A DNA stretch of 64,000 bases from a virus (lineage: Duplodnaviria > Caudoviricetes), in the IMG/VR virus record IMGVR_UViG_3300013121_000046. One strand, 5' to 3'. The position numbers were made by a program, and so were the translations under genes. Shown here in pieces: positions 128 to 56,778 of the stretch. The notes under the pieces were generated by a model that worked only from the letters and a program-made list of their open reading frames with translations, did no database searches and was not told the DNA's origin. The number at the start of each line of letters is the position of its first letter. The stretch's first letter is position 1.

Positions 128-358
128 CTATCGGCCTATAGCGTGCTTATCAACTCCACAGCGAGTATACCCACAAGCAGCTAAAGGAATGCCCGATCTA
201 TGGGTAACAGAGGTTTCAGAAATAGCCCTTGAGAAAGGGACAAAACCTCGATAATAGGAAGCCGGAATATCCGACAAAGCCCCCGGTAAAACCTTCTCCA
301 GGATTCTCGCTAAATCTCGCTCTCGTCGAGTCGCCCCTACTCCAGTGAGTGAATTCAT
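128..358 (-). CDS. hypothetical protein (tail module)
   Basis: 76-aa ORF whose start overlaps the upstream stop (TAATG). Confidence 0.55.
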   Translation of the reverse strand: MNSLTGVGATRRERDLARILEKVLPGALSDIPASYYRGFVPFSRAISETSVTHRSGIPLAACGYTRCGVDKHAIGR

Positions 359-3333
359 TACAGCAATCCTTGTACGGGCAAGTTTACAATCTCAACATCC
401 GATAGATTTGGTTCGACAAATAACTCTAAACCAAGATTTGTAAGGAAATTTTTAGACTGAGTATCTGCTGTGTGTGCTACACTAGTCACAATCCAATTAC
501 TGTTAAATCTATCCAGCAACTCAATCTGAGCATTCCCAGGAATCGAAACCTGACCGGCAGATCGAGGCCGAGCCACACCTTTAATTATCTGCAATACCGA
601 CTTGTTAAACTCCCCCATTGAGCGGAATACTCCTGGGATGGGGAAAAACATCATTTTATCCCACGAAAAAACCGGAGTTGTACTTACGCGGATTAAGGAG
701 AGTACCGGTTTTGCAAATTTTGTAAGTTGGTCAGCCACTCCCTGAGTGTTAAAAAAATCAAACTCTATCGGAATGGGTCCTTCCATAACCAAAGCGGAAA
801 CTACCACAGCATTTCTCACAGAAGAAAAATCCGGGTTATCGTTATAACTTAAAACTCTAGCGGAGGGGTATTCCCAATTTATATTTGTAGACCTAGCTGT
901 CTCTATGTACCTAAGATAGCCTAGCCTATCAAAATAAGCCAAACAGCTTGCGTGCTTACAGACTTCTGATATGGCATCCCACACCGGAGTACCAGATTTG
1001 AAATCAATTATGGGTGCCTGAACCGTAGATAAACCAGAAGGTAATTTATAGGGTTGTGAAAGATTCAAAAATGGTACACCCCCATAATCAGCTAAGTACT
1101 GAATTACTTGTCGATGGTCAAACCCATCAAAGTACGGAACATTAAGTAATTTTAGGCCTCCCTGATCTTGAAGCTTATGCTCCCTACCAAATAAAGATAT
1201 CTGAATAGTGTTGTCCGATGTGGTGTCCTGTTCGGCATTTCCTACTGCTAGACCAGTAAAAATTGTCCCTGAGACCGTATTCACACCACCATTCACGGCA
1301 ATCGTAATCGCCCCGGCATTTTGCCTAGGCCGATCTACAAGACCTTCCGGACCATAGCGATCCCAAATTAAAGTACCGGAAGAACCATCCAAGGATCTAG
1401 AAACATCTACCCGCTGAATTCTCTCCACCGGCACATCATTAACGGTCAAGAATCCATCCTGATTTCTGAACTTAATTACCGTTGTATCTTCATCCGGATA
1501 TTCCCGAGAATACACATAGCAACCCCAAGTCTCTAAGGGTCTGCGGTAACCCCAAGAGTCAACGGCCACATCACTAAAAGTCTCTCTTTTAGTTCTTACA
1601 AATTCCTGATAAATATCCCAAATCGGAGAATCCTCCGAACCCGGAAGTACCTTCATAGAACAAAAATACTCAAAACTCCGGGGATAATAGACTACCGGTA
1701 GAATCTTAAAATGATCCGCCTGCTGTAAAGCAAATATCTCTTGCCCTACCTGTCTATTCTGAATATCTGCAAGCTCATCCGGCTTCTTCTCTTTCTTACT
1801 TTCAACCGCAGTCCCTCTAACTGCAATATGAGTGCGAGTCTTTGCCGGAAAAAACAAGGGTCTAAATTGAAGGACTCCGCCACATCGCAAATAATTAACT
1901 CGCAGAATCCTACCCATATCTACAGAAACATCCTGCTCAGAGGGTATCTTTACCCCGTGATTACCAAAAATTCCCTTGCCTCTCCCCATCTTAGCGAGGG
2001 TAGTCTCATAGGGAGTCTGCGGTAAATCCTCAAATACCTGCTCCGCGTCATCTGTGTCGGTGATTTCCACCGGATTCGCATTCACACCACCCGGGGGGAG
2101 TGGATTAGGCTCCGTAGAATCCTCCGAGTTTACATCCGGGCTTAACTTCGGTAGAGTCCTCGGGATAGTTTTTTTTACCGTTGGGTCATTGTTGTCGAAG
2201 TCTAAGACGGTAGCAATTTCAGATAAAATAGTTCTCCCCGGAGTTTTCTGCACATACACCATCTTTTCGGGCCAAGTTGACTCTTGTATGGGGCCGTAAC
2301 CAATCAGTAGACCATTCCAAACGGGAACAAAACAAATGTCTAAGGGTCTTTCTCCCGAATGATGGGTTGTACTTTGAGCAAAGGTTGGAAAAATCGGTAT
2401 CTGCTTAGGTTCTTTTCCTGTAAATTGGATTGTTGCTTCTGACTTACCCTCTATAATAGTTAGCTTCACTTCTCCGAAACGAATCTCTACAGACCATTCT
2501 CGCCCAGTATTTTGTTGATCGTCGCAACCCGGCTGAATAGCTAAGTGTAGAGAGAACGCATTTACCTGATCGTTAGATAACTCCACCAAAGGTGCCGGAT
2601 AAAGGGGAGGATCATAGGCAGAACTAATCCCGATGGTCGGTGGTGAGGCCACCCCAACCCCAAAATCGGCCTCGGGAGACAGGAGAAGGGAGGCCTGTTC
2701 ATTAGCTACTACAGGCAATTTAAGACTGTAGGGTAAGGTTGCTTCTCTTCTCTGCGGAACAATAACTAACTTACCGTCAGGTCTAACCGAGACCGAAGGG
2801 CTTTCTGTCCCATAGGGTAGAGCATTACCCAAAGCATCTACAGTAGGGATAGTCTCGACTTCCCACCGATAAATGGTTCCGTAAGAATCAGACACTTGAT
2901 AGAGCCCATTCCGATTGTGCCGATCTTCCGGAGAAAAGTAGGGAGTGGAAATCAAAGAATGCGTTGCCGGAACATACACTCCAGATCTCAAGGGATTCAG
3001 TGTTTCTAGTGCCGTTTGCGTAGACCGGGTAGTATAAGCAACAAAAGGGAGTCGATGTGTAGAGTATCCAGAATTATCTTCACCATAAACACTACCCGAA
3101 GAAGACTGCCAAGCTCGATATTCCTTAATCCAAGCTTGCCCCACATACTCCCGCTTCTTCAATCGAGCAACTATATCAATATCCGTATCGTTCCCAATAG
3201 TAGCGGTACCGATTGCCCCATAAAATAAGGGCTCTAAGGATTCTCTCGGGAAAGGGGGTCTCTCAGGTAATACCGGAGGGGTCCCAGCCTCAATCACTAC
3301 ACTGGGAATTGTACTTTCATTCACAATGACCAT
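358..3333 (-). CDS. tail tip / baseplate hub-like protein
   Basis: 991 aa directly after the tape measure gene; C-terminal third has hub-like features (IQRVDVSRS, IFTG, WDAISEV..YFDRLGYLRY, NAVVV, IPGN..IELLD..WIVTSVAH). Confidence 0.65.
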   Translation of the reverse strand: MVIVNESTIPSVVIEAGTPPVLPERPPFPRESLEPLFYGAIGTATIGNDTDIDIVARLKKREYVGQAWIKEYRAWQSSSGSVYGEDNSGYSTHRLPFVAYTTRSTQTALETLNPLRSGVYVPATHSLISTPYFSPEDRHNRNGLYQVSDSYGTIYRWEVETIPTVDALGNALPYGTESPSVSVRPDGKLVIVPQRREATLPYSLKLPVVANEQASLLLSPEADFGVGVASPPTIGISSAYDPPLYPAPLVELSNDQVNAFSLHLAIQPGCDDQQNTGREWSVEIRFGEVKLTIIEGKSEATIQFTGKEPKQIPIFPTFAQSTTHHSGERPLDICFVPVWNGLLIGYGPIQESTWPEKMVYVQKTPGRTILSEIATVLDFDNNDPTVKKTIPRTLPKLSPDVNSEDSTEPNPLPPGGVNANPVEITDTDDAEQVFEDLPQTPYETTLAKMGRGKGIFGNHGVKIPSEQDVSVDMGRILRVNYLRCGGVLQFRPLFFPAKTRTHIAVRGTAVESKKEKKPDELADIQNRQVGQEIFALQQADHFKILPVVYYPRSFEYFCSMKVLPGSEDSPIWDIYQEFVRTKRETFSDVAVDSWGYRRPLETWGCYVYSREYPDEDTTVIKFRNQDGFLTVNDVPVERIQRVDVSRSLDGSSGTLIWDRYGPEGLVDRPRQNAGAITIAVNGGVNTVSGTIFTGLAVGNAEQDTTSDNTIQISLFGREHKLQDQGGLKLLNVPYFDGFDHRQVIQYLADYGGVPFLNLSQPYKLPSGLSTVQAPIIDFKSGTPVWDAISEVCKHASCLAYFDRLGYLRYIETARSTNINWEYPSARVLSYNDNPDFSSVRNAVVVSALVMEGPIPIEFDFFNTQGVADQLTKFAKPVLSLIRVSTTPVFSWDKMMFFPIPGVFRSMGEFNKSVLQIIKGVARPRSAGQVSIPGNAQIELLDRFNSNWIVTSVAHTADTQSKNFLTNLGLELFVEPNLSDVEIVNLPVQGLL

Positions 3334-7284: not shown

Positions 7285-8307
7285 CTAACCCAAAGATGGC
7301 CAGGCATCCAAGGGGGGCAATCCAACACTGGGATTAAGTTGAACAGGAGCGAGAAAGGTATCCGAAGCCACAGGATGGTAGGTAACAGTCGTAGCCGGAA
7401 GTCCCGGAGAATCGGGGAGTCCTGGAATTGCTGGTTGCCCGGGGTTAACAGGGGTGTTGGGCAATCCAGGAATCGGGGGGATTCCCTTGCCCCAATTCAA
7501 AACTTCCGTTGAGTTTTCTTGCACTAAATTACCCAGGATATCGGCTGTACACTGTATGTTAGTAATAGTAGCCTGATATGTATAGGTATCTAGTCTTCCG
7601 CCTAAAGCAAATACCCTATTTTGAACTAGTCCCGTAATGAAGAAGACTTCCCCTATAACAACGTCGATACTAGTCGGGGTACTCAAAACAAACTCAGTAG
7701 TAACCTGTAACTGTATGGATGAGTCTCCAACTCGGTAGTACGAAGGGTATGGAGACTCTGTATTACGCCATTTAGCCTGAAGCGGAGTACTGTGCGTTAA
7801 AGTCCAGTCCCGAACATATGGGGCCCCAGAAGCCCAACCAGGAGCTAATAAGTCTGCCCCAGTCTTTACCGCTACATTCAAATCCGGGAGGGGAGGGGCT
7901 AAAGCTTTCCCCGACACATTCACCTGTACTACACCATCAGCATTTCCAGACATTGAGAAGGATTCAACATAGCAGTTTGTTAACTGATACGCCGCAGGGG
8001 ACTGCTGCATTGTGACGTAAGTTACCAGTCCTCGGGATTCCCCTGAGAAAAAATTCAAAAGAGACTGAGCCCCATATAGAAGATCGCCACCTAAATCCCA
8101 AGATATTTCAGAAACACCCCTTGAGTGTAAAGTCTGTTGTTGATTCCCACTGACGCGATTCATCGCATAGTCTGACGTTTGATAACTGTTACTCTGGCTC
8201 CACCCCCCACTATTCGCAGCAATGTACACCCCACCTAGGGAGGCATATTTTTTCCACCCCCCGGATGGGCTAAGTATTGGACCCAAAGCATAAGATGGGT
8301 TTGCCAT
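7285..8307 (-). CDS. tail tube-like protein (paralog 3)
   Basis: Beta-rich tube-like pattern (YVESFSMS, DWTLT); N-terminal GWKKYASLGG resembles GFLGYAEIEG of 10314..12551; Pro-rich C-terminus. Confidence 0.5.
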   Translation of the reverse strand: MANPSYALGPILSPSGGWKKYASLGGVYIAANSGGWSQSNSYQTSDYAMNRVSGNQQQTLHSRGVSEISWDLGGDLLYGAQSLLNFFSGESRGLVTYVTMQQSPAAYQLTNCYVESFSMSGNADGVVQVNVSGKALAPPLPDLNVAVKTGADLLAPGWASGAPYVRDWTLTHSTPLQAKWRNTESPYPSYYRVGDSSIQLQVTTEFVLSTPTSIDVVIGEVFFITGLVQNRVFALGGRLDTYTYQATITNIQCTADILGNLVQENSTEVLNWGKGIPPIPGLPNTPVNPGQPAIPGLPDSPGLPATTVTYHPVASDTFLAPVQLNPSVGLPPLDAWPSLG

Positions 8308-10238: not shown

Positions 10239-10250
10239 AGGATACCTACC

Positions 10251-10284
10251 AAAAAGGGCAGAGACTCAAAAAGTCCCTGCCCTT
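10251..10284 (-). terminator. intrinsic terminator downstream of the major tail tube gene
   Basis: AAGGGCAGAGAC/GTCCCTGCCCTT inverted repeat followed by a U-run on the minus strand. Confidence 0.75.
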
Positions 10285-10313
10285 AAAAATCCTTTATCGG
10301 AGTATCCCAAATA

Positions 10314-14635: not shown

Positions 14636-17578
14636 TTATGCCGTAATAGTTCTCTCCACTATCTGACTCACAACTAGAGAGTCTCCAGACTCACCTCCGG
14701 AAGTCAGTTCAATATCATTAACTTGGAAATACTCATCCACCTCGTATAGGGTCCACCCAATAAGAGAAGAAGCCCCTGAAGTAGAAGTCAAAGCCACATA
14801 TCTGTAATACCTAAAGGGCAGAGGGTTAGAAACATAAAACTTATTCTCCACCTCCGCCTCTAAAGACCCCCCCATGTTCTCTCGAACATCCAATACTCGC
14901 CAATTTGAACCATCTAAGCTACCTTCCACTCGCCAATCTGCAAAATCATCTGTAGTTGGAGTATCAGATGCTTGAATACCGTATGCCCCTATTTTTACCA
15001 ATACATCTTCACCAAAATCAATCCGTACCCACTGTGAAGTTGTGTTAGTTGGCTGAGGGGAGGGCGTCCATTGGGTGGCCGCGTCCCCATCAAACACCTT
15101 CCACCCTATGTTACTCCCAGAAGCAGGTGTGGACTGAGTAACAGTCATATCCCCGTTTGTAGCTGCGGAAAAAACTGGTACATAATTATCTTCTATGACT
15201 AAGTTTCTAGTCAATTCCAAAGATTCATCTTCAACCGTAAAATTAACCGTCCTAGTCGTAGTATCACTTCTGTATGTGGTTAAAGCGTAAACACTCTCTC
15301 GTTGAGTCTCTGGCCCTGTACCCCCTCTCAAATACAGGGCGGGAGTACCATAAGACACTACAGTATCGGCATCACCTAACGCAGTGGCCACCAACTGCCC
15401 CGCATAGGGACCGGTGCCCAGTAAATCAACTATCTCTTGTACCGTCGTAACTCTAGGATTAGTCGAAGTTCCCTCTAGAGTAATCGTGTAGGTGTAATTA
15501 GGGGAAACCCCAGAACGAGAAAGAGCTAAGGTATCGGTAGAATTGGAATCGTATAACCGCACTTGAATATTATTAGAATCAGTGCCCCCAATCCCAGTAG
15601 CCTCTGTGTCAGCCTCAATCCTAATTCCAGCCCCCGATATTCTGGCTGCAAGATATGTTCTACCCATAACAGATACAGAATCTGCTCCCGTCCCCCCCAC
15701 TACCGGGGTTTGAAGTAAGGGAGGGGTTTCAGCAAGAGATGCCGCATCAATAGCTGCTGCTACTAGGGTAGCTGTATTTGATCCAGAAATAAGACTCGTA
15801 CCATTATGAGCAAGTGTGACAATAATTCTATAAGCCGTAGTTACACTGACCGTAAGAGCAGAAGCTGAACCGGGATTTACATACTCTATAGAAATCTTCT
15901 CCCCAGCACGCCCATCATAGTCCGGAGAATACGCTGTGAAAGTGATTTCACTATTTCCAGAGCCCGTAACTAAAGTAGCCGAAGGAGTAATAGGATAGAT
16001 ATCTAAGCCGGCTCCCCGATTTGAGGGTGTATACTCCACAGACAATCTCTGGGCAGCATAATTAGTATTGCTAGTTGGCCCATCTCCGGCCCCTAGCTGA
16101 GTACCTGGGGTATACGCCACAGTCCTGGCACTAACTAAATTTATAGCGGACCCGGAAGACTGCTCATAAACTATACCAGTCCCCGTTTGACTTCCCCCAA
16201 AAGCCACAGTAGCCCAACTCTTGGCTACCGCATCAGCATCCCAAAGGGTCTTGATGTCGGCTGCTGTGGACACAATATCCCCAGAACCATCTGTTTCTAG
16301 CGAGACTGTAATTTCCGGTAGATAGTCATCTACTGTGATTGTGAGGGGTTCATTCGAGCCTCCCGGATCAACAAAAGCAATTGTTGTATCCGCCCCTTTT
16401 CTTCCGTAGATAGCCGAAGTAAATACCAACCAGTTATCCGCATAGGAGACACTACTACCCAGAGATAGGGTCACTACCTCCCAGGCTGAGAGTACACCGG
16501 TTCCGGATGTAGTGACCTGGATTAGACTACTGGCATCTAAGTCGGCCTCAATAGCAGCCTTCACCGCAGCAGGGGTGGCATTTGGTGAACCTCCCCCATT
16601 TGTACCTAAACTCAGGGTAATGTCACTTCCGGAAACACTTGAGACCTCCGTAGGTTGACTATTACCCACTGCCTGTTCAGCAACTATTGTGATTTGGGTA
16701 CCACCAGAGCCATATTGTTTTGCAATCAAATTGACGATGTTTGTAGTTTGAGCAATACGTGCGGTAGCAAACTTCAAATCTAGAACCGCACGGTCACTCC
16801 CAGATACTGTCACTTCACCCGTAGCCAAGGTGACAGTATCTGGCCTAAAAACTAAAGCAGCATCCAAGTGATTTCCGTATATCTTGTTAAAAACCACATC
16901 AAAATCTCGATGAACTTTCAGACTGTTCTCTAACAGGTAACCAGAAAGTAGACCAGTTTGACCAACAGCAGCAAAATAATTTGTCAATCCCGCTAAGAAA
17001 CCTCCCCAATAAGGGACTAACTCAAAGAACCGATCTGCTGTAATATTAGCATCCAACAGGGAAGCTGCTGTGGTGAGTTGCGCCACCACATCGGCATCCG
17101 CAGTACCCACAACCATCGCTGTGTAATCACCGTTTATGCCACCCGTAAGTAGGGTTGTAGGGGCAGTCACACTGACTACGGAGCTACCATTACTGGTCTC
17201 AGGTAAACTGGCTACCACCACCTGCTGACAAGCACAATCGGCATTGACTAAAGCCAGAATATCGTTAGCTGTGGAAGTAATAACCGCAGAACCATTCGTT
17301 GCCAGAGTCACATAAATAAGTTTCCCCGACCCCTCCAGAGTATTTAACACATCGACAGCTAGTGTGGCACTCGCACCTGGACTATGGAATTGAACCTGAA
17401 TTAGATTTCCAGGGGTTCCTGTGTTAACTGCGGTGAAGGTTATTCCGGCATTACTAGAACCAATCGTGGCCTCAGCCGCTTCGGCTGCCGGAGCCATCTG
17501 AGCCTGAAGTTCAGTAATAATTCCATATTGATAGGCAATGCGATCTAACAGTCTCTGTAGAACTTCTTTTTCAATCAT
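14636..17578 (-). CDS. large virion structural protein with repeated beta-sandwich inserts and a discoidin (F5/8 type C)-like domain
   Basis: About five repeats of I/L-x-F-T-A...G..G..I.V; C-terminal WKVFDG..T.W...WVRIDFG...WRVEGSLDGSNW..LD...FRYYR discoidin signature. Confidence 0.7.
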   Translation of the reverse strand: MIEKEVLQRLLDRIAYQYGIITELQAQMAPAAEAAEATIGSSNAGITFTAVNTGTPGNLIQVQFHSPGASATLAVDVLNTLEGSGKLIYVTLATNGSAVITSTANDILALVNADCACQQVVVASLPETSNGSSVVSVTAPTTLLTGGINGDYTAMVVGTADADVVAQLTTAASLLDANITADRFFELVPYWGGFLAGLTNYFAAVGQTGLLSGYLLENSLKVHRDFDVVFNKIYGNHLDAALVFRPDTVTLATGEVTVSGSDRAVLDLKFATARIAQTTNIVNLIAKQYGSGGTQITIVAEQAVGNSQPTEVSSVSGSDITLSLGTNGGGSPNATPAAVKAAIEADLDASSLIQVTTSGTGVLSAWEVVTLSLGSSVSYADNWLVFTSAIYGRKGADTTIAFVDPGGSNEPLTITVDDYLPEITVSLETDGSGDIVSTAADIKTLWDADAVAKSWATVAFGGSQTGTGIVYEQSSGSAINLVSARTVAYTPGTQLGAGDGPTSNTNYAAQRLSVEYTPSNRGAGLDIYPITPSATLVTGSGNSEITFTAYSPDYDGRAGEKISIEYVNPGSASALTVSVTTAYRIIVTLAHNGTSLISGSNTATLVAAAIDAASLAETPPLLQTPVVGGTGADSVSVMGRTYLAARISGAGIRIEADTEATGIGGTDSNNIQVRLYDSNSTDTLALSRSGVSPNYTYTITLEGTSTNPRVTTVQEIVDLLGTGPYAGQLVATALGDADTVVSYGTPALYLRGGTGPETQRESVYALTTYRSDTTTRTVNFTVEDESLELTRNLVIEDNYVPVFSAATNGDMTVTQSTPASGSNIGWKVFDGDAATQWTPSPQPTNTTSQWVRIDFGEDVLVKIGAYGIQASDTPTTDDFADWRVEGSLDGSNWRVLDVRENMGGSLEAEVENKFYVSNPLPFRYYRYVALTSTSGASSLIGWTLYEVDEYFQVNDIELTSGGESGDSLVVSQIVERTITA

Positions 17579-18631: not shown

Positions 18632-18985
18632 CTAGTGTCCGGTTATTCTACGATATTCATCCAATACAGAATCTTCCAAGTACTTCCTAAATTCGGGGTT
18701 AATCGGGTGTGCTAGATCCGAGTATATCCGATTATCTGTAATATCAAAGTCTAATTCATGACCACAGCGAGCACAAAAACTGGCTGACAGAGGGTTCTTC
18801 TCTCCGCAAGAACACCTTCCAGTCAGTTTCTTTGACGGCATCCCTAAAAACCATTTACCATTAAGATTCATTAACTTTATATCTTTAATAGCTAATGAAT
18901 CATCCAAAACCATCCTAACGTATGCTTTGAGCCCCGAAGAATATCCTTCTTCAACCGGGGACACAACTAATTCGGTTATCTGCAT
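18632..18985 (-). CDS. spoVG: SpoVG family nucleic-acid-binding protein with zinc-ribbon insertion
   Basis: MQITE, LKAY...LDD.LAIKDIKL, FLGMPSKK and YSDLAHPIN motifs; inserted CSC..CARC. Confidence 0.9.
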   Translation of the reverse strand: MQITELVVSPVEEGYSSGLKAYVRMVLDDSLAIKDIKLMNLNGKWFLGMPSKKLTGRCSCGEKNPLSASFCARCGHELDFDITDNRIYSDLAHPINPEFRKYLEDSVLDEYRRITGH

Positions 18986-20476: not shown

Positions 20477-21652
20477 TTATTCCTTAGAACTTAAAAATCG
20501 AGTCCAAACCCTCCCTAAATCATCAATTTCAGGATAAACTAAAATCCGATTGTCTAAAAACTTACATCTCTCTGGGATGATACCTAAAACAAGAGGCTTT
20601 ATTCCTGATCTCTGAACCACCATATTCGCAGCTACGGAGACTGTTGTGCTGGTAGGATACCCCAAAGATTGAATCCATCTATTAGACCAGGAGAATCGAA
20701 TTCGATCTAACTCCCTTACGTACCCCATTAAAAACTCTGAGGAGAGTAATTTCTTTTGAGTAAAATACCCTAGTACCGGTACCTGTTCTACACATTGACG
20801 CTGCATATCGACGAGAGTCGTAGGGGAAGCTGGGATAACTTCCTGAGTAGTAAACAAAATATGTTTAGTCTGGCAAGCTACTAAAGAATGATCGAAAGCC
20901 GTAAATCTCTCATTCCCCACTTGAGCCTGCACTTGAGAAATACTTATTTTGGTATCTCTCAATTCCTCTAAGGCTTCCGAACTAACACCTTTCGAGCTTA
21001 CATATCTAATATCCAGATGCACAGGAACGGTCTGCTTTTCCCATAGAGATTTCAGTATTCTTAGCCGATCACAGTTCAGTCGATCAAAAAATATTGATAC
21101 CGTCACTTCATCAAATCGAGACCTAAGCCAAATTGGGGGGTCTAAAAAATCCGCATCTACATTAATCTGAGAACCCGAGTCTTGTACAATTTTATCAGTA
21201 TCTCCCGGGGTTCTCCAACCCCGTAGACCTGCCCTCCGTACCCAATCCGCAAAAACTACGGCTAAATCCGGTGAGACTAAAAAATTACCTACTTCCCGGA
21301 GCGTCTGCTTCCTAAAATAGGTCCCAAAAATCTTCTTTCGATCCTGTGTTTGAACCCCCAATCGAATATCCTGTGACCAGCCTTTCTCAAGTTCAACCAG
21401 ACTTTTTACGCGCCGAAGCGTTGTTGAATCCAGTATTAAAATATCATCACTCACCTTTTGTAAAATCACATTGAACCAAGCGGCCCAAGGCTCATCCTTA
21501 CTCTTTAGGTAGCTTGAGAATTTACCTCTCTGAACCGCCACCCGAACTTCCTGAGTCAAAATCACATGCAGATCAATCCCTAATAGACTGGTCTCTTTCC
21601 AAACTTCCTCAATATCTGCTGCGTCATCAGAGCAAAGAATTACAGTTGCCAC
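20477..21652 (-). CDS. divergent GT2/GT-A glycosyltransferase-like protein (two domains)
   Basis: FN......DDILILDS and DWVRRAGLRGWR match GT2 patterns; DxD not intact. Confidence 0.5.
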   Translation of the reverse strand: MATVILCSDDAADIEEVWKETSLLGIDLHVILTQEVRVAVQRGKFSSYLKSKDEPWAAWFNVILQKVSDDILILDSTTLRRVKSLVELEKGWSQDIRLGVQTQDRKKIFGTYFRKQTLREVGNFLVSPDLAVVFADWVRRAGLRGWRTPGDTDKIVQDSGSQINVDADFLDPPIWLRSRFDEVTVSIFFDRLNCDRLRILKSLWEKQTVPVHLDIRYVSSKGVSSEALEELRDTKISISQVQAQVGNERFTAFDHSLVACQTKHILFTTQEVIPASPTTLVDMQRQCVEQVPVLGYFTQKKLLSSEFLMGYVRELDRIRFSWSNRWIQSLGYPTSTTVSVAANMVVQRSGIKPLVLGIIPERCKFLDNRILVYPEIDDLGRVWTRFLSSKE

Positions 21653-21983: not shown

Positions 21984-22337
21984 TTAACCACCCAATGATG
22001 GCTTCCTATTGAACTTACTGTTAGGGTCGTAAGGACCTCCCGGAGTAGGATTCCTAACCCTTGTCCCCTCCGGTACAGGTGCGGGAGCAAAGTTATCCCA
22101 TTGAGTCTTAGCCAATCTGGAACTCCGTTCCTCTAAGGCTTTGGCTTTTCTTCGACCAATTTTAGTCGAGGACACCCCAGGACCCCTAGCGGAGAGACCA
22201 AACCTCAGAGTAGCCCAATCAATCTGCAACGAACCTCGACAATTTGGGCAAGACTCATTACCCTCTTCACCAGGTTCAAGGTAAAAGTCCTGGTGAAAAT
22301 CACATTGACCACATTTCAAACCGATGCACCGTTTCAT
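21984..22337 (-). CDS. zinc-ribbon protein (FmdB-like)
   Basis: CGQC...CPNC N-terminal pair. Confidence 0.65.
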   Translation of the reverse strand: MKRCIGLKCGQCDFHQDFYLEPGEEGNESCPNCRGSLQIDWATLRFGLSARGPGVSSTKIGRRKAKALEERSSRLAKTQWDNFAPAPVPEGTRVRNPTPGGPYDPNSKFNRKPSLGG

Positions 22338-23008
22338 TTTGTCTGTATCCGTACCTTAGCCCGAGCCACTGCTGCTTGTTCTTGTATTTCTCGATCCGTG
22401 AGAACCCGCTCATCCGCCGGTTTGCCAGCAATACGTGCTACTATCTGCCCCTGGACTTCCGGATCAACAGCAGAATTTACCCGGATATCTCCAACTTTTT
22501 CTGGTACCCCTAAGGTGTATGTACCATCAGCAGATCTACGTGAAATTTCTTCTAATCTGTCCCCTCCATGATCTCGTATAAACTCCTTCTTTTGCTCAGG
22601 AGTTAAGTTGAACAGACTCACTTCTGTTAGACTTGGCTCCTGATTTTCCTCTCTCTTAACCCTAACCTCATCCGCTACCATTGCTTTCTTACTAACAACT
22701 TCTTCCTGGCTAACTGGCATAAAAGGAGAGTTTTTAGCGTTCAAAAAAATCATAAAACTTCCCAAAATGTCATACTTCTTACCTCTAATCCTAACATATT
22801 CATTGTCTGCATATATCAGAGTCTCACCCTCGGTCAGTTTAGTTCGGATATCCCCTAGATAAACATCCCGAATAACCTGATAGACTTGAGTTGCCTCAGA
22901 CTTTTCCACTCCTCCCAAAGGCTTAGAGTGTAAGTTAGCCATCAAGGTGTTGTATAAATCTTCCGGGATTATCCGGTATCCCGGTGGGACTGAAAAATTT
23001 TCACTCAT
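22334..23008 (-). CDS. hypothetical protein
   Basis: 224-aa ORF with AGGA RBS; ATGA-coupled to the next gene. Confidence 0.65.
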   Translation of the reverse strand: MSENFSVPPGYRIIPEDLYNTLMANLHSKPLGGVEKSEATQVYQVIRDVYLGDIRTKLTEGETLIYADNEYVRIRGKKYDILGSFMIFLNAKNSPFMPVSQEEVVSKKAMVADEVRVKREENQEPSLTEVSLFNLTPEQKKEFIRDHGGDRLEEISRRSADGTYTLGVPEKVGDIRVNSAVDPEVQGQIVARIAGKPADERVLTDREIQEQAAVARAKVRIQTK

Positions 23009-23070: not shown

Positions 23071-23907
23071 TTAGAATCCATTCGGTAAAGCATTGAAGTA
23101 CTTACTCAACAACTGAAGTAAGCAGACCGTTGCCTCTGTCCTACGTTGAGGCGGGGGAGGCTTAATAGGCTTGCCTGGTACCCACTCTCGTTTATCCCAT
23201 TTCCACGCCCCAGCCGTAGCAGCATATGAATAATGCAACACTGGAGCAGAAACTGTAGCTGAGTTAGGAAAAAAACAAGTCTCAGCAAGCTCATGCTTCA
23301 AACCCAACTCAGCGGCTGCCAGAGTATACCCCCACATCTCTGCTACCCAGTTTACCTCTATCTTAGAGGCTCGGTGATTTCTTATCGCCCTAGTCTTTGT
23401 CAACCACTCGCCAGCCACCTTTTCCAGGTCCAACCTGTGAATGACCAGAGGGACCGCCACAGGCTGCACCTGGGGCGGATTCATACAGAATCTCGATACT
23501 ATGTCCGGATGATCCTTTGGCTCCATAAACCAGCTATGGTGGCCCCAAGGATGGCCCTCTTGGGCTTCCCGCTCAATGGGTTGGATAAAGGCACAGTCAG
23601 GATCTACAATTAAAATTGTCTCTTCAGAGATATCTGCCTTCACCACCCACTCCATGATACCCCCAGGCTTATTGTACGGTGGGTAGAAATCCTTAGACTT
23701 GGGGTCAGGATTATAGGACCCTACCAGAAAGGTAGGTATCTCATCTGAAAGCTTATCGTGCTTGTTAGAATGAAGAAGCCGAGTAATTTTACCGGGCTGC
23801 TTCACATCACGATGAGTCCAATAGAGAAGCTGCGACTGCCAATTCAGGTAGTCCGTGGACTCGGCAGAAAAAATAGTGTGTATCATAGTGTCTGCACTAT
23901 GATACAC
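23071..23907 (-). CDS. peptidyl-serine galactosyltransferase / hydroxyproline O-arabinosyltransferase-like glycosyltransferase (SERGT1/HPAT-like)
   Basis: HTIFS..YLNWQ, QPGKITRLL, YPPYNKP, DPD (DxD), WVAEMWGYTLAAAELGLKH and LHY motifs; probable start at the MIHTIFS ATG. Confidence 0.8.
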   Translation of the reverse strand: MYHSADTMIHTIFSAESTDYLNWQSQLLYWTHRDVKQPGKITRLLHSNKHDKLSDEIPTFLVGSYNPDPKSKDFYPPYNKPGGIMEWVVKADISEETILIVDPDCAFIQPIEREAQEGHPWGHHSWFMEPKDHPDIVSRFCMNPPQVQPVAVPLVIHRLDLEKVAGEWLTKTRAIRNHRASKIEVNWVAEMWGYTLAAAELGLKHELAETCFFPNSATVSAPVLHYSYAATAGAWKWDKREWVPGKPIKPPPPQRRTEATVCLLQLLSKYFNALPNGF

Positions 23908-26505: not shown

Positions 26506-27666
26506 CTATTGGAAAAAGGTAAGGATGGATAACAATTCCGCTGGGGGTAAGGCTTGCCCGGGGGTTTTATCTGGACCTAAAGGCATTCTTTTGGCTACAT
26601 CTGGATTAGTTACAGCCAAAACTATTTTCTTTCCCCACTCATTCCGTTGCTCCACTCCCCAGGAAGCCACCTCAGATAAATCTAAAGCCCCCGAAGCATT
26701 TTCTTTCGAGTGGCAAACCACACACCTATTTATAATTACCTGGGGTGCCACAGCCACTAACTGTGAACCCATAGCTGCTAACTGAGGGTCACCGATAGTT
26801 GTAGAACTATAGCTAGAGGATGAAGTTATTCCATAGGGTTGGACTGTAACCTCTCCCTGAGGTGAGACAGTACCTGAAAGAACAAAAGTTCTAGGTTGAG
26901 CCGACGGTGTAAGGTCTCCCTTTGCTGCAATCAGAACTTTCGCCGCCGCGTCTGCCTGAGCTAATATCTTGGCAATCTCCGCCTGATGGGTACCGTGATC
27001 GGTAATTAGTGCTGAAAAATCTACCGCAGCTTGACCAGCTAAAGTCTGAGCTTGTGTCGCTAATCGGGAGGCCTGGTTATACAAAGAGGCCAAATCAACA
27101 TTCCCATAATTCGAGGAAAATTGATTAAAACCATACACAGTATTTCCCTGAGCAGCAAAAGGCTGATAGCCAGTCATCCCAGGAATACCCAACTGATTTA
27201 AGAGAGGGGCCCCCAAATTTGGATTCGTGGCACCATACTCCCCAGCACCAGAAGCATAGGTAGGAGTTGATCCGTATCCGGACCAAGAGAAATTCCCCTC
27301 CAACCCTAAAGCTCGAATACTTTCGATAAACTCGTTCTGCTCATTAGCACTTTCCCGAAGTCTTGCTTCAGCCCTATCCCTAGCCGCCACTAAATTAAGT
27401 AGTGTTGTTCGCCACCCCTCAGTACCCGGCGTATAGGAATCTACTCTGGCAAATTGGCGATAAGTGTAGGGATGATTACAAGTCCCCCGACAGCCACAGG
27501 TTCGATACCGCTTATAGTACCAACCATCATTTGTGGTGTAATCTGTTTTTTGGAACAGACCATTCCCCATTGGAACGTAGTACCAGCCCTCTGCTTTAAC
27601 CGGACTAAAACTCAGGGACAAAAACAGGACAAAAAATAGAATCTTGTGCAACATGATTGCTCTCAT
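26506..27666 (-). CDS. exported protein with C-terminal Planctomycete-type cytochrome c domain
   Basis: Signal peptide ending VKA; CVVCH heme motif followed by GALDLS and RMP (candidate axial Met). Confidence 0.75.
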   Translation of the reverse strand: MRAIMLHKILFFVLFLSLSFSPVKAEGWYYVPMGNGLFQKTDYTTNDGWYYKRYRTCGCRGTCNHPYTYRQFARVDSYTPGTEGWRTTLLNLVAARDRAEARLRESANEQNEFIESIRALGLEGNFSWSGYGSTPTYASGAGEYGATNPNLGAPLLNQLGIPGMTGYQPFAAQGNTVYGFNQFSSNYGNVDLASLYNQASRLATQAQTLAGQAAVDFSALITDHGTHQAEIAKILAQADAAAKVLIAAKGDLTPSAQPRTFVLSGTVSPQGEVTVQPYGITSSSSYSSTTIGDPQLAAMGSQLVAVAPQVIINRCVVCHSKENASGALDLSEVASWGVEQRNEWGKKIVLAVTNPDVAKRMPLGPDKTPGQALPPAELLSILTFFQ

Positions 27667-40369: not shown

Positions 40370-42334
40370 CTACCTAGGGACTTGATACACAAGGATACTC
40401 TCGTACCAATTACCAGACTTTGAAAATCTTGAGGGAATTCTATAGGGTATATCCTCTTTGAGCGGCCAAGGGGCGACTCGCTTCCAACTCTCTGCTGCGG
40501 GAGCCCGCCTAGGATTTCCTACTTGAATGCCTATTATAGCGCCCGGCTTCATAACTCTTTGAAGCATTTCAAATACCTTGGCAATCCATCTTTCATAATC
40601 TTCGATACTCTGACAAAAAACACAAACTTGAGATTTATCTTCAGCATATCGCTCATAATTAAAATACGGAGGGGATGTAAAACACAAGTCATACTCCAGT
40701 CCTTGGGGAGGGGACCAATTTTCTGCTCCAATTAAATGAAGAAAGATAGGTTTATCTACCTTTTTTTGAAGAGTTTGTCGTAAAGTTTGATTACCCATCA
40801 AAGTCTTTTCACTGGGATCCAACCCAGTATAGGACAAAACTTTTTCAGAGGCCCAGCAACCCACCATTCTACCGCCAAAGCCCGCTGAGAAATCAAGTAC
40901 ATGTCCAGGCTCCTGGAAAAATAGGTCACAGAAAGTCTTAGCTACAGCCGGGGGAAAGTTTCCAACTGTCTTTTTTTCATATTTAAGTGCTTGCAAAAGG
41001 TGTTTAGGCTCCAGGCCCTTGCCGGACTCTACGAGTCTGGTTAGGACTTTCTCAAGAATTTGAGAGTCCTGAAAAGCCCCTAAAGTCGTGATCTTTCTAG
41101 AGTTTATTCGGACACCCCAAATATGGGGGTGAAAGCTGGTACATAGATTGACCCCAGTATTTAGGTACTGCCAGGTTCTATCCTCTTTCCGCACCTGCGA
41201 TGGCTGCACCCGTTGAATTTGATCCAATGTCCGGGATATTTGCTTCTCGGAGTATTTCGGGTATGGGAATCCGGCTACCCGGTAAACGCTAAGCAAGGAT
41301 CGCACTGTCGCTTCTTTGGACAGCCCCCCGGTTTTTAGAGCCTTCAAAGCCTCGGACTGGCTATGATCGGCTGACTCAGGGTTTATGAAAGTGGGAAACT
41401 GCGTAAAAATCTGTTGTCGCGGTTGCATAAGGGCCTCGGACGCCAGAATCTCCTGAAAATTTTCCAGACTTTTGGGCCCTTTGACCAAGAATTTCCGCAC
41501 CCGCATCCCGGCTGGGATACTGTGTAGAGCCTGAACTCCCCAGCTACTTAGCTTTTTGATGAGTTTATCGGCCTCGTCCGGGAAATTAAGGAGTAACTTG
41601 GAGGTCCAGGAAGCGTGCCCTTTTCGAGATGTTCTCCCGGAGTCTGCAAACCAGGAAACCAGTACACCAGGGGTAACCCGGGAAGCCCCGTCAATCGGCC
41701 AGACTTTTTTCCCCTCCGGGTACAGTAAGTCCCACCATTTTTGCCAGTATGGGGAAGCCTCTGAAGTTACCCTACCCGTCAGGTACGAGGATCCATTACG
41801 AATGGTGTGCATCTGCTGATATTTGGCGGAGAAAAACTCTCCTAGAATATCCCGTTTTTTGAGTGCATAGCCGGTTTCCTGTAGGGGGTGATGGCATACA
41901 AAGTAGGGTACCCCACTTCGGGATCTTCGCAGGGTGGCTTTTCCTAGCAGTGTCCCAAGAATAAATTCCTCTACCTCTTCTGGGACTATTTGTGCTGGGA
42001 CCCGCTTATTAACTCGCTCTGTTTTGCTCAGCGGGGATATGCCATACTTAGCTCTGAGCCCCAAAACATGATGCCGCTTCATCTGATACTTCACCATAAT
42101 CTGGCGATCAGATAAAAGATTCTCTTGGTATTCTCGCTCCAGCACTTCTTTGGGGAGCCGCTTTTCCAGTCGCTCCCAATTAAACCGTAGTCGGCTAAGC
42201 CCGAATTTCTTCACATACCAGTCAATAACGTCCCGGGAGCATCCGAACTCTGCAACCAGGGGAGCAGCCCCCTCTTTTCGATATCGGGACTTTATCGCCT
42301 GCTTTAGACCGGGGTACTTTTCCGGGGGAGCCAT
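40370..42334 (-). CDS. HTH plus degenerate LAGLIDADG domain fused to an amino (N4C/N6A) DNA methyltransferase
   Basis: ILGTLLGKA and SWFADSG (LAGLIDADG_2-like); VLDFSAGFGGR (motif I) and FTSPPY (motif IV). Confidence 0.8.
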   Translation of the reverse strand: MAPPEKYPGLKQAIKSRYRKEGAAPLVAEFGCSRDVIDWYVKKFGLSRLRFNWERLEKRLPKEVLEREYQENLLSDRQIMVKYQMKRHHVLGLRAKYGISPLSKTERVNKRVPAQIVPEEVEEFILGTLLGKATLRRSRSGVPYFVCHHPLQETGYALKKRDILGEFFSAKYQQMHTIRNGSSYLTGRVTSEASPYWQKWWDLLYPEGKKVWPIDGASRVTPGVLVSWFADSGRTSRKGHASWTSKLLLNFPDEADKLIKKLSSWGVQALHSIPAGMRVRKFLVKGPKSLENFQEILASEALMQPRQQIFTQFPTFINPESADHSQSEALKALKTGGLSKEATVRSLLSVYRVAGFPYPKYSEKQISRTLDQIQRVQPSQVRKEDRTWQYLNTGVNLCTSFHPHIWGVRINSRKITTLGAFQDSQILEKVLTRLVESGKGLEPKHLLQALKYEKKTVGNFPPAVAKTFCDLFFQEPGHVLDFSAGFGGRMVGCWASEKVLSYTGLDPSEKTLMGNQTLRQTLQKKVDKPIFLHLIGAENWSPPQGLEYDLCFTSPPYFNYERYAEDKSQVCVFCQSIEDYERWIAKVFEMLQRVMKPGAIIGIQVGNPRRAPAAESWKRVAPWPLKEDIPYRIPSRFSKSGNWYESILVYQVPR

Positions 42335-53340: not shown

Positions 53341-56300
53341 CTATGAATCCCCATAATCATCCCCAGCATTATGATTTACAGCTTTACTCCGAGTCTTACC
53401 CTTAGGTCGATTCTTCAGAATACTCTTAATGGTACTAGAACTCAAAAGTTTCCCAGGTAGCTTAACCGGACCCCCCTTAATTTTTTCTGTGACCACTGAA
53501 GCCAGTCTGTTGGCAGTTACTGGGGCCGAGGGGGAGCCCAAATCTCCGGCTGGAGGAGCACCTAAACTGGTATCATCAAGACCTAACCCACTTCCAGTAG
53601 GGGGTAGACCTAACTCACCCCCAGTGGGAGGTAACCCTAAGTCAGCACCACCTAAACCTATATCACTACCTCCGGATGGGAACATATCCAAACCGGGGCC
53701 TAAACCACCCACACCGCCACCACCAGGGGCCGGCTCACCTCGGGCTTGTGATTGCACATCCAAATTTAGCCCCTCAATAACCCTGCGAACAAAATCCGTC
53801 TGCTGAGTAATAACCGGAGCAACCTCAGGATATATGGATTCCATTAACCGGTTAAACACTGGATCCTTGATTGTACCCAGATCTTCTAATAGGGCTGTTT
53901 CATTCTCTTCAGAATCAATGTTGTGTAAATCAAGCAAATAACGTAGGGCCAAAGACCCCTTCTGATGTAACTGAAAGAGTTGGTCATAGACTTCAACATT
54001 ATCCCTAATCGAAAGTCTATTGAATCGCAGGGTTGAATGGTTGTAAATCTTATTTATCTGCATAACCCGACGACGTAACGTCCCATCATGCTGCTGGAGA
54101 ATATCATCTCCCGGAACAATCTCTTCCGGCTCTATCTTAATCCAAGTTTCAATCTCCTCGAAGAAGAAATGTCCCTTGGCCTCGGCCATAGGCCTAAATA
54201 AAACTTTCTCAACGTAGTTCTTCATTAACTCACGAAAAACAAGATACTGGGTGTTTTGCAATTCTAAGGTGATTCGTTGCCCACCATAAGTTGCAGCCCC
54301 TGTGAGCATCTCTTTTGTAGTCCCCAAGCCTGTGGCCAAGTCCTCACGCAGGGTCTGATATTCAGTGTCTACTTGGAGCAAACGATCATTTGCTCCGATG
54401 GTCTGCCATTCTACTGAATAATTTGTAATAATGGGATAATCAGCTTGCTCTAAAAGAGCTAAATCTACCTGCCCACGCAAATCATCCAACTGAGGTGGGG
54501 TAATGCCATCAGCATATATCAAAAGCTTAGGCTGCATATTCCGAGAGGATATCTGAAGCTGGGCGTTCTTCAAATTCTCCAGTCGAAATAGAGTCTCTAA
54601 ACATCGCTCAATCAACGAGACCCCGTATTGCTCATTCGGAGGCCTATTTCTAGCTAGGTGATAGACAAAAGAACCTTGTGCTGGATCTGTATTAAGGGGG
54701 ACACCCTCACCAAAGTCCAAAGCATCTCGTAACTCTTCGGGAATATCATCCTCCAACTCAGCAAATAGATCGGCCAAATTATCTGAGGAAGATGTAAGAT
54801 ACAAATCCCGATCAGTCATTCTTCGGACAGCCGCAGTATCTACTAAGGGCCTAGCAAAAAAGATGATCTCTTGGTTTCTTTTGAAGGGATGGATAAGTGA
54901 ATGGCAGTTGCCGGCACTAACTCCTTCTACCATAAGAGAATGAGTCTCTTCAACTGTCAGGTTATACACATCCCCTGTATACTCAACTTCGGTGATATTA
55001 CTCACAGGATAAAAAGCATATTCCCCAGGCTCGTAGCTCGGATCGTTCAACTTAGAGAAATACCGAGCAGGAGTCTCATTAAAATGAATCTTAGGCCTAC
55101 TTCTAACTGATTTCTGGGTGTCAGAATCATACTCAACCAATGACACGGTTTTTCTATTAATCGAGGGTCGCCATCTATTCCATAACCCCACTCGTAAAGT
55201 CATAAGCCGCAATTGGGCCGCAAGCTTTCTGCTAACAGTGGCAGATGTCATACTACCATTAGGTCTATCGCAACCATCACCATCCCAATAAGCCCTCAAC
55301 AAAACCTTCTGCTGTTCCTTAGGGAGGTGAATCCATCTCTCGGTGAGAACTTTCTCATAGGCCCCAGTGCCCGCTTCTTCCTCGAAGAACTTAAAGGCAG
55401 CCTGATTTACGTATCTAACAATCGTGCCGTAATGCGGGTGAGGATCCTTGACAATAGCACGATTAAATGATTTCGGCACCCTAGGGTCCGACATGTGCCC
55501 GCAGTTTTTACATCGGGCTCGTTTTTCTAAACCGGACCTACGGTCTGGGCCTTTGTTGTACAAATACTTATTAGGGGCATTACAAGCTGGGCAAGGGCCG
55601 GAATACCAATCCAAAGGCTTTCTTACGGGCTTAAGCTCCGTATTTGTCTGCCAATCCCTGGGTTGGTTAAACCTCTTCCCATAACTGATTTCTGGTGGGA
55701 AGCATTTCTCTAGGAGCCGAGCAATCTCTTCAGCTTCCCTTTTCTCCGTGTGACCTAAAGTAAAAATAACTGTGTCGCTTGTTCCTCGGTACAGTGATCC
55801 CTCTGCTAAGTACCAACCCATAAGGTTGCACAGATCCGCATCTATATCGTCCTGAGGAATTTCTTCTCCCATCTTTGGTGAGATCAGCCAATCACCCGGA
55901 CGAATAGCCTTCGCCGGAATCTTAACCGCTTGTCTCTGCTGAGTCTGAACCTCTACGGCAACCCCCCCAGATTGGAAGAAATTTTCTTCCTCTGAAATAA
56001 TTTCAGAATCTCTCCATACGTAAACTGGGTGCTCCGGAGTTACCCGGAGTTTGTTGGGTAATCCGAACGCAGATATCTCTAACAAAGTCCCCCGACTGGG
56101 GTTTTTGTGGGTTTCAAGGACTGCTCTAGGCTTCCCTTGATGGTCGATAACCCTCTCACCAACCCGAATATCCTTGATAGCCTTCCAAGTCCCATCGGCC
56201 ATAGTGACCTGGGAATTGGGGTGAAAACAGTACTCTGCCGGAAGAACAAAACACTCACTCCATTCCTTAAGCTCATCATCCCATTCATGCCAAATATAAA

Positions 56301-56778
56301 CAGAACCCACCAACCAATACTCCCGAGCAATATCCAGTAGCAATGTTGCGAGATCATTACGCTCAGCGAAATCCTCATAAATACGGTTAATCTCTACATT
56401 CTGTTTATGATTGGGCCCTTTTGGGGGGCCAATAGTCATTCGAGACATTGGCAACTCAGAATGCAACTCTACCGCCCGACCCACAAAAGGATCAACCCGA
56501 CCAAAGTATCGGTACAGAGCAAGTCTATCAGCCCGACTTAAAGTGTACTGGAGAACAGCCAGAGGGCTATTCGTAGCCAAAATGGAGGGTAAAGCCGCTG
56601 ATGAACCCCCATACCCAGAGGAGAACCCGACACTTAACGCTGAAGCTGAGGCTGAGGCTGATCTCTTTCCAGCCTTTCGCATAGAAGATACAATATCATC
56701 CGTAATTCGACGGGCAGTAACCATCGAAGCCCAAGCTGGGTCACGAATAGCAGACACTGTGTTGTCTGTATCAGCCAT
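53341..56778 (-). CDS. portal protein containing an intein (about 704 aa after splicing)
   Basis: Follows terminase; YRYF...DPFV..A..LH..LP, EYW..G..Y, HLARN....YG.S and Gly/Pro-rich C-terminus. Confidence 0.85.
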   Translation of the reverse strand: MADTDNTVSAIRDPAWASMVTARRITDDIVSSMRKAGKRSASASASALSVGFSSGYGGSSAALPSILATNSPLAVLQYTLSRADRLALYRYFGRVDPFVGRAVELHSELPMSRMTIGPPKGPNHKQNVEINRIYEDFAERNDLATLLLDIAREYWLVGSVYIWHEWDDELKEWSECFVLPAEYCFHPNSQVTMADGTWKAIKDIRVGERVIDHQGKPRAVLETHKNPSRGTLLEISAFGLPNKLRVTPEHPVYVWRDSEIISEEENFFQSGGVAVEVQTQQRQAVKIPAKAIRPGDWLISPKMGEEIPQDDIDADLCNLMGWYLAEGSLYRGTSDTVIFTLGHTEKREAEEIARLLEKCFPPEISYGKRFNQPRDWQTNTELKPVRKPLDWYSGPCPACNAPNKYLYNKGPDRRSGLEKRARCKNCGHMSDPRVPKSFNRAIVKDPHPHYGTIVRYVNQAAFKFFEEEAGTGAYEKVLTERWIHLPKEQQKVLLRAYWDGDGCDRPNGSMTSATVSRKLAAQLRLMTLRVGLWNRWRPSINRKTVSLVEYDSDTQKSVRSRPKIHFNETPARYFSKLNDPSYEPGEYAFYPVSNITEVEYTGDVYNLTVEETHSLMVEGVSAGNCHSLIHPFKRNQEIIFFARPLVDTAAVRRMTDRDLYLTSSSDNLADLFAELEDDIPEELRDALDFGEGVPLNTDPAQGSFVYHLARNRPPNEQYGVSLIERCLETLFRLENLKNAQLQISSRNMQPKLLIYADGITPPQLDDLRGQVDLALLEQADYPIITNYSVEWQTIGANDRLLQVDTEYQTLREDLATGLGTTKEMLTGAATYGGQRITLELQNTQYLVFRELMKNYVEKVLFRPMAEAKGHFFFEEIETWIKIEPEEIVPGDDILQQHDGTLRRRVMQINKIYNHSTLRFNRLSIRDNVEVYDQLFQLHQKGSLALRYLLDLHNIDSEENETALLEDLGTIKDPVFNRLMESIYPEVAPVITQQTDFVRRVIEGLNLDVQSQARGEPAPGGGGVGGLGPGLDMFPSGGSDIGLGGADLGLPPTGGELGLPPTGSGLGLDDTSLGAPPAGDLGSPSAPVTANRLASVVTEKIKGGPVKLPGKLLSSSTIKSILKNRPKGKTRSKAVNHNAGDDYGDS
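54907..56229 (-). mobile_element. intein with LAGLIDADG endonuclease and Cys4 insertion (441 aa)
   Basis: Block A CFHPNSQV, block B TPEHP, motifs MGWYLAEG and LRAYWDGDG, block F VYNLTV, terminal GN followed by C+1. Confidence 0.92.

Follow-up and report, generated by a model that had tools for sequence, protein, structure and literature searches.

A 64,000-nucleotide stretch of DNA from a tailed virus (IMG/VR record IMGVR_UViG_3300013121_000046), hereinafter the window, which is part of a 236,349-bp contig, carries at positions 23,071 to 23,907 of the minus strand a gene whose product, judging from its sequence, belongs to the superfamily of hydroxyproline O-arabinosyltransferases (HPAT; CAZy family GT95) and peptidyl serine alpha-galactosyltransferases (SGT1, or SERGT1; GT96). 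The protein represents a soluble, single-domain phage branch of this known superfamily, a branch with no characterized member. In the reading that we prefer, to which we assign roughly even chances as a whole, it would be a soluble, retaining peptide or protein O-glycosyltransferase of the GT-A fold that is expressed late in infection and initiates glycosylation of a phage protein, probably one exposed on the virion surface.

Membership in GT95/GT96 was judged by the Pfam model PF23452 (HPAT) and by a tree that included labeled plant sequences. The match to PF23452 spans the full length of the profile (positions 2-304 of 307) with an E-value of 1.5e-44 and a score of 153.1 bits, far above the gathering cut-off of 23.9, in agreement with an earlier note on this DNA that, from the letters alone, had described the gene as coding for a plant/algal-type protein O-glycosyltransferase in a phage. 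All the motifs quoted there recur in the translation (HTIFSAESTDYLNWQ, QPGKITRLL, YPPYNKP, VDPDC, WVAEMWGYTLAAAELGLKH and VLHYSY), and the DxD motif is indeed intact. An exhaustive phmmer search over 1.84 billion representative sequences recovered 1060 relatives at E<=1e-3, 39 of them at E<=1e-30. Conservation among the relatives is complete or at least 90% at nine residues (N79, K80, D102, D104, E190, M191, H225, Y226 and K239); the DxD motif is invariant in two of our alignments (A1 and A3), and D104 is nearly invariant in the third (A2, 49 sequences). When queried with the protein or its profile, PHROGs, NCBIfam and the PDB sequence library gave no match, a tblastn search of 50,697 GenBank phages with the protein yielded none at E<=1e-3, and neither did megablast with 20 kb of the window against the same phages. 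The features of the gene are as follows.

23071..23907, minus strand: gene for the HPAT/SGT1-family GT-A glycosyltransferase, assigned from Pfam PF23452, the AlphaFold2 model and the GT8-like fold.
23596..23604, minus strand: D102-P103-D104, the DxD motif, predicted ligands of Mn2+ and of the diphosphate of the uridine diphosphate (UDP)-sugar, from conservation in A1, A2 and A3.
23191..23235, minus strand: the H225-Y226...W237-x-K239 block, with H225, Y226 and K239 at least 90% conserved in A2.
23878..23907, minus strand: a perfect 13-bp hairpin, the arms of which hold both candidate starts (GTG 23907 and ATG 23886), followed by a U-rich run, from a scan for terminator-like structures.

The open reading frame (ORF) is real and intact: the full-length family match and the retention of all the invariant residues rule out a pseudogene or a chance ORF. 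Counted from the GTG at 23907, the product has 278 amino acids (aa); the probable true start is the ATG at 23886 (Met8), which is taken by the gene caller (product P0001, 271 aa) and by the homologues. The region of the hairpin (an 81-nt fold of -25.4 kcal/mol, z -4.4) is more stable than each of 200 shuffled sequences, and the hairpin may block access to the start codon or act as a transcriptional attenuator.

The AlphaFold2 model, built from the 49-sequence alignment, adopts the GT-A fold (predicted local distance difference test, pLDDT, 95.9; predicted template modeling score, pTM, 0.93). A structural search against representatives places retaining GT-A enzymes at the top, namely, glycogenin-1 (Z 15.8), LgtC (15.5) and WbbM (15.3), and also recovers the catalytic domain of UGGT (14.9) and the Skp1 alpha-galactosyltransferase (14.6); Z-scores from 14.4 down to 12.5 belong to a bacterial GT6 enzyme, LARGE1, GlyE (13.0) and A64R (12.5), the capsid-glycan enzyme of the virus PBCV-1. 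Foldseek retrieves GT6, GT8 and GT24 enzymes at E-values of about 1e-6 to 1e-7, with GT6 heading the list. Several of the nearest solved folds act on proteins. SGT1 forms an alpha-galactoside from UDP-alpha-Gal, and HPAT forms a beta-L-arabinofuranoside from UDP-beta-L-Araf, both with retention of configuration. Because the reactions of both SGT1 and HPAT are retaining, the phage protein is predicted to be a retaining transferase that depends on Mn2+; by analogy with GT8 enzymes, D102, D104 and, as third ligand, H225 would hold the metal, and K239 would hold the diphosphate. That the protein has glycosyltransferase activity appears very probable. No signal peptide and no hydrophobic or transmembrane segment were detected in the protein (best 19-residue Kyte-Doolittle mean, 0.92), and in the model, strand beta-1 begins at residue 9; given this lack of a hydrophobic segment and the early onset of the fold, the protein is predicted to be a soluble, cytoplasmic, single-domain enzyme.

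To place the phage protein with respect to the plant enzymes, two reference clades were labeled. An 826-aa protein (P0011) with two HPAT-like domains (approximately, residues 21-313 and 368-693) shares 80% identity with angiosperm proteins annotated as peptidyl serine alpha-galactosyltransferases, and its clade, which also includes a protein from Coleochaete (P0009), is therefore identified as SGT1/GT96. The HPAT/GT95 label was given to grass proteins of 364-365 aa from oat (P0077) and Alopecurus (P0172) by size and taxon, not by annotation. By pairwise score in phmmer, the phage enzyme is closer to SGT1 (35% identity to the N-terminal domain of P0011, E 2.4e-51) than to HPAT (29% identity to the oat protein, E 2.3e-23). 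In the IQ-TREE phylogeny of 91 domains (LG+C20 model with posterior mean site frequencies, PMSF; supports from the Shimodaira-Hasegawa-like approximate likelihood ratio test, SH-aLRT), the eukaryote-labeled groups form a single clade (95) that holds SGT1 (99) and HPAT (99). Outside this eukaryotic clade, at a weakly supported (83) border with bacterial and phage sequences, stand the window protein and P0002, the relative closest to it; in a FastTree phylogeny of 192 domains, the two fall within the bacterial/phage half. A topology that joins the two to crown SGT1 was rejected (difference in log-likelihood, 126; p-value of the approximately unbiased test, 2.4e-5), and membership in the HPAT/GT95 clade is ruled out by the tree alone, given that the clade with the two grass proteins (SH-aLRT 99) excludes the phage protein. 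The phylogenetic evidence thus indicates that the phage protein belongs to neither of the characterized clades, GT95 and GT96, its exact position in the superfamily being weakly resolved; of the description as plant/algal-type, the family assignment stands and the clade assignment does not.

The tree also bears on a bolder scenario, one we regard as unlikely, that combines two propositions: that the enzyme functions in an extensin-like pathway, putting the first sugar on Ser or hydroxyproline of (SPPP)n stalks in the surface proteins of the phage itself, and that the window/P0002 clade is the closest sister, in the prokaryotic world, of the eukaryotic GT95 and GT96 radiation. In the LG+C20 tree, the sister placement is weak (SH-aLRT 83); if true, it would trace the origin of the plant enzymes to bacteria or their phages.

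In bacteria, the distribution of the HPAT family is sporadic. With one genome per GTDB species and a GTDB scan that used only two peptide patterns, at least 37 bacterial species or loci from about 11 phyla carry family members with 27-43% identity, spanning Gemmatimonadota, Thermomicrobiota, Chloroflexota, Planctomycetota, Actinomycetota, Rhodothermota, Nitrospirota, Myxococcota, Acidobacteriota, and Alpha- and Gammaproteobacteria; the cultured carriers include Kolteria novifilia (Planctomycetota) and Tepidamorphus sp. 3E244. Among 301 sampled Planctomycetota genomes, PF23452 is present in a single one, the seed genome itself. A scan of IMG/VR with alignment A3 added two further viral contigs, and one with the single protein, none; clusters in the ESM Atlas are mainly bacterial, mainly from Uroviricota, or eukaryotic, which serves as a lead only. 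The bacterial carriers, together with several phage contigs, show that the family is not confined to eukaryotes, so that the view, expressed earlier for this gene, of an otherwise mostly eukaryotic family does not hold in any strict sense. In the literature, we found no paper that places the HPAT/SGT1 family in phages, viruses or bacteria. One viral contig (L001; IMG/VR 3300033062_002026; intervals 2861-3736, 6762-7928 and 10037-10903) carries an HPAT gene beside a gene with an FGE-sulfatase domain, of which there is a second copy 7 kb away; the same contig encodes an actin-like protein of the Volactin family and a fragment of the DNA polymerase III alpha subunit.

The bacterial relatives provide indications of the nature of the acceptor. 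Four homologues, from two alphaproteobacteria, a Myxococcales metagenome-assembled genome (MAG) and an Acidobacteriota MAG (L018, L022, L016 and L021), possess a C-terminal PqqD domain. PqqD is the peptide-recognition element of the pathways for peptides made by ribosomes and modified after translation (RiPPs). In a gammaproteobacterial MAG (L031, 8001-11516), a single chain of 1172 aa combines HPAT, GT60 (PF11397) and a 2-oxoglutarate (2OG)-Fe(II) oxygenase of the prolyl-hydroxylase type; PF11397 is the GlcNAc-transferase family of Pfam, to which the Skp1 hydroxyproline GlcNAc transferase belongs. Tepidamorphus sp. 3E244 has an overlapping operon (L018, 1867-9149) that consists of a PqqD+HPAT-like paralogue, a weakly O-FucT-like protein, a 2OG oxygenase, GT60 and HPAT-PqqD. 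Elsewhere, O-FucT is fused to HPAT (L035), two tandem HPAT genes are followed by GT60 in a Nitrospirales MAG, and an HPAT-radical SAM fusion is encoded in a glycosyltransferase-rich cluster (the contig of P0015). Together with the gene set at L015, 8001-10960, those of L018 and L031 look, by their gene content, like an undescribed RiPP-type pathway of peptide hydroxylation and O-glycosylation. DUF6065 turns up beside genes of the HPAT family twice, in bacterial settings that are unrelated: a Limnocylindria MAG (L017, 7231-7992) and the P0015 contig. Because of these repeated ties to peptide-recognition and protein-modifying modules, and because of the two plant activities, a peptide or protein acceptor is indicated for the HPAT family, and by analogy, it seems likely that the phage enzyme uses such an acceptor as well.

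The position of the gene within the phage genome bears on the choice of acceptor. The landmarks of the window are listed below.

57344..59218, minus strand: large terminase, TerL (PHROG match, E 1.4e-20), upstream of the glycosyltransferase gene.
53341..56778, minus strand: portal protein interrupted by an intein (PHROG match, E 7e-15; intein and LAGLIDADG domains), upstream of the glycosyltransferase gene.
14636..17578, minus strand: virion protein of tail type, 980 aa long, that has a discoidin (F5/8 type C) domain (PHROG tail match, E 4e-13; Pfam F5_F8_type_C, E 1e-12), downstream of the glycosyltransferase gene.
358..3333, minus strand: tail protein (PHROG match).

All long ORFs of the window are on the minus strand, and the matches to TerL, portal and tail families on that strand confirm the phage origin of the DNA. 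Given these matches and a terminase that shares only 23-26% identity with those of an uncultured 485-kb phage and of Tunturiibacter phage Tunturi_5, the window comes from a tailed jumbo phage, itself uncultured, that branches deeply. Its glycosyltransferase gene is part of a long co-directional block of late, structural genes, with the packaging/head genes on one side and the tail genes on the other. The earlier note had it upstream of neck and tail genes for Ser/Thr- or Pro-rich proteins: the location in the late block holds, and the richness does not, being unremarkable and devoid of tracts. Pfam also recognizes in the window an S8 protease, a MoxR-type ATPase accompanied by its DUF2201 partner, genes that bear inteins, DNA methylases, SpoVG and a dCTP-deaminase-like protein. 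Inteins with LAGLIDADG domains interrupt two minus-strand genes (10314-12551 and the portal gene, 53341-56778), and in a DNA methylase-type gene (40370..42334, minus strand), a LAGLIDADG domain is present and no domain for intein splicing was detected. The DNA of the window was found in one activated-sludge metagenome DNA run; no RNA sequencing runs with this stretch are listed, which has no bearing on expression.

The gene belongs to a module that is retained in related phages. The order of genes for the HPAT-like protein, a 224-aa protein, a zinc-ribbon protein, a 391-aa protein, SpoVG and a 172-aa protein is common to the window and a related phage contig, L003.

22334..23008, minus strand: 224-aa protein, directly downstream of the glycosyltransferase gene in L003 too (blastp to L003 4900..5868, E 7e-8).
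21984..22337, minus strand: 117-aa zinc-ribbon protein, two genes downstream of the glycosyltransferase gene (45% identity to L003 5871..6344).
20477..21652, minus strand: 391-aa conserved neighbor (blastp to a 476-aa protein of L003, E 9e-24).
18632..18985, minus strand: SpoVG homologue (Pfam SpoVG, E 4.7e-19; synteny with L003 and the P0002 contig).

P0002, which is 51% identical to the window protein, is encoded in a 139-kb contig with a similar gene order, as judged by gene length and Pfam family; there, the small proteins are separated from a 455-aa protein by a methyltransferase and a 619-aa GT2 glycosyltransferase, and at the same place L003 encodes a 607-aa GT2. The GC content of the glycosyltransferase gene (0.486, against 0.458 for the window) is inside the range of the window, which rules out a recent, unameliorated transfer; taken with the synteny, in which identity is 36-51%, it points to a long-resident gene of the phage lineage rather than a recent import. 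The L003 copy (P0008; 3999-4844) groups with chromosomal genes of Planctomycetaceae (L009 and L013; SH-aLRT 99) and not with the window copy, a placement that suggests either exchange with planctomycete hosts or gene replacement inside a conserved phage module.

For the individual neighbors, there is less to say. The 224-aa protein has no match in Pfam or NCBIfam. The C-terminal tail of the zinc-ribbon protein, which contains Pro, Thr and Ser, is strongly conserved between the window and L003 (RNxTPGGPxDPNSKFN; in the window, RNPTPGGPYDPNSKFN), and one might speculate that this protein is the partner or even the acceptor of the glycosyltransferase; a predicted complex of the two scored 0.04, below the mark, which is evidence neither way. 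The 391-aa protein shows a weak language-model likeness to viral GT2/GT-A clusters (ESM Atlas, 145-157 features shared), hhalign showed no relationship to the L003 GT2, the IMG/VR scan produced no relatives, and the AlphaFold2 model, made from a two-sequence alignment, is unusable (pLDDT 32).

Taken together, these observations are compatible with the following scheme. Most likely, a soluble, cytoplasmic, single-domain enzyme takes a UDP-sugar, binds Mn2+ and the diphosphate of the sugar nucleotide through the DPD motif and His225, and forms an O-glycosidic bond to the hydroxyl of Ser, Thr or hydroxyproline in a peptide or protein. The acceptor would be a phage-encoded protein of late infection, probably one on the virion surface, and the enzyme would add the first sugar. 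A late phage protein is the likeliest acceptor because of the location between the terminase and portal genes and the tail genes, and because of the neighbors that are kept together with the gene, with a methyltransferase and a large GT2 in the relatives. That the acceptor is specifically a virion protein, we hold at somewhat less than an even chance.

Several observations weigh against this scheme. Among the genes of the window, there are no Ser-Pro (SPPP), poly-Thr or poly-Ser tracts; no such tracts are present in the examined flanks of the related phage contigs; and the Ser-Pro3 repeat pattern is missing from a 107-kb viral record (L042). No 2OG oxygenase or prolyl hydroxylase was detected among 71 scanned ORFs of the window, and the window has no homologue of the relatives' GT2 and lacks the methyltransferase that accompanies the gene there. 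Furthermore, the literature yielded no characterized member of the prokaryotic/phage branch, and the case for a peptide acceptor draws on distant subclades (27-33% identity) and on the plant enzymes. Because neither a prolyl hydroxylase nor a Ser-Pro or poly-Thr tract was found in the window, virion O-glycosylation is a plausible route that we infer rather than observe. The 30-residue segments richest in Ser, Thr and Pro (47-50%) lie at the C-terminus of 7285..8307, within 26506..27666 and at the N-terminus of 59221..59727. The first of these is in a 340-aa protein of the tail region (minus strand), with a Pro-rich end of PGLP/PxxP type (PPIPGLPNTPVNPGQPAIPGLPDSPGLPAT) that is the most acceptor-like stretch of the window.

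Other acceptors have to be considered. A protein or peptide of the host could be the target, either in host takeover or in the alteration of a receptor or surface-protein precursor to block superinfection, and bacterial toxins of the GT-A fold, which modify translation factors, offer a parallel for the former. A soluble enzyme with no export signal would reach any cytoplasmic host protein, the window contains no phage acceptor tract, and the grouping of the L003 copy with chromosomal planctomycete genes makes a host-derived activity on host substrates conceivable. However, the gene is located among late and structural genes rather than in an early block, its companions in the relatives are a methyltransferase and a GT2, as in virion-glycan cassettes, and the family is a rarity among the sampled genomes of Planctomycetota, a host phylum that is a lead only. 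Thus, modification of the host is the strongest competitor of a phage acceptor, albeit one with a low probability.

Still less probable is a non-protein acceptor, such as a glycan on a lipid carrier, a polysaccharide or a small molecule, for example, in the remodeling of the host envelope. The GT8-like fold does encompass many oligosaccharide-directed enzymes (LgtC and WbbM among them), and some of the bacterial homologues are found in glycosyltransferase-rich clusters, but both characterized branches, HPAT and SGT1, act on peptides (PMC8012813, PMC5371791), and the bacterial fusions join the family to peptide-recognition and protein-modifying domains. Moreover, no membrane association is predicted for the phage protein, and no genes for sugar-nucleotide or lipid-carrier metabolism are found nearby.

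We know of no DNA glycosyltransferase in the HPAT family. Although jumbo phages often hypermodify their DNA with glycosyltransferases of their own (PMC12619734; PMC13326640) and the window encodes a dCTP-deaminase-like protein and two proteins of the DNA methyltransferase type, glycosylation of hydroxylated bases of the phage DNA as a means to evade restriction is highly improbable, considering that PMC13326640 mentions no HPAT-like enzyme, that the tblastn search of GenBank phages, those with glycosylated DNA included, gave no match at E<=1e-3, that no hydroxymethylase was found in the window, and that the gene is in the structural block rather than in one for nucleotide metabolism.

Comparison with known systems puts the preferred reading, a phage-encoded peptide or protein O-glycosyltransferase, in perspective. 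HPAT and SGT1, which in the literature are treated as plant and algal enzymes, initiate the O-glycosylation of extensins and peptide hormones in plants (PMC8012813, PMC8476585). SGT1 is the best-scoring characterized relative of the phage protein, sharing PF23452, the motifs DPD, NKP, EMxGY and HY and, it is expected, the retaining chemistry, but it is a protein of approximately 800 aa with two tandem HPAT-like domains that resides in the secretory pathway, whereas the phage protein is a single soluble domain of 271-278 aa. SGT1 requires hydroxyproline adjacent to the target Ser, and in plants, Ser-Pro3-5 is the motif served by SGT1 and HPAT (PMC5371791). HPAT1-3 resemble the phage protein in the same Pfam family, the same motifs and the single catalytic domain; these enzymes put the first sugar on the peptide and are type II membrane proteins of the Golgi (PMC8012813). 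They differ by about 40 additional N-terminal residues, by acting after prolyl 4-hydroxylases and by the membrane anchor; the phage protein has no anchor, falls outside the HPAT clade and comes from a window in which no prolyl hydroxylase was found among the ORFs scanned.

The solved enzymes of GT8, GT6 and GT24, among them glycogenin, LgtC, GlyE, the UGGT catalytic domain and alpha-1,3-galactosyltransferase, have the closest folds (Z 13-15.8) and share the DxD motif and the downstream His/Lys block, but with no detectable sequence similarity (the PDB profile search was empty), the resemblance is one of fold and probable mechanism and not of membership. The bacterial HPAT-family proteins, which comprise the fusions described above as well as stand-alone forms in Gemmatimonadota, Chloroflexota, Planctomycetota and elsewhere, are prokaryotic and soluble like the phage form, with 27-43% identity to it, and occupy the same region of the tree; however, the phage enzyme has neither the PqqD domain nor an adjacent oxygenase or GT60. 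There is no NCBIfam model for the bacterial proteins of the family. Being soluble, single-domain and easy to express, a phage or bacterial member would lend itself to study as a model of a family that lacks a solved structure (sequence searches of the PDB gave no entry), and along with the bacterial operons that combine PqqD, prolyl-hydroxylase-type oxygenases and GT60, it points to an undescribed prokaryotic chemistry of peptide hydroxylation and glycosylation.

With respect to viruses, the relevant precedents are the mycobacteriophages, in which, as summarized in PMC12619734 (citing Freeman et al. 2023), the glycans are on the C-termini of capsid and tail-tube subunits, and A64R of PBCV-1, a structural neighbor of the phage enzyme (Z 12.5). 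The common theme is a virus-encoded glycosyltransferase near structural genes. Those enzymes belong to other families, and no tract comparable to those of the mycobacteriophages was found in the window. The phage enzyme would allow a test of whether phages beyond those of actinobacteria glycosylate their particles.

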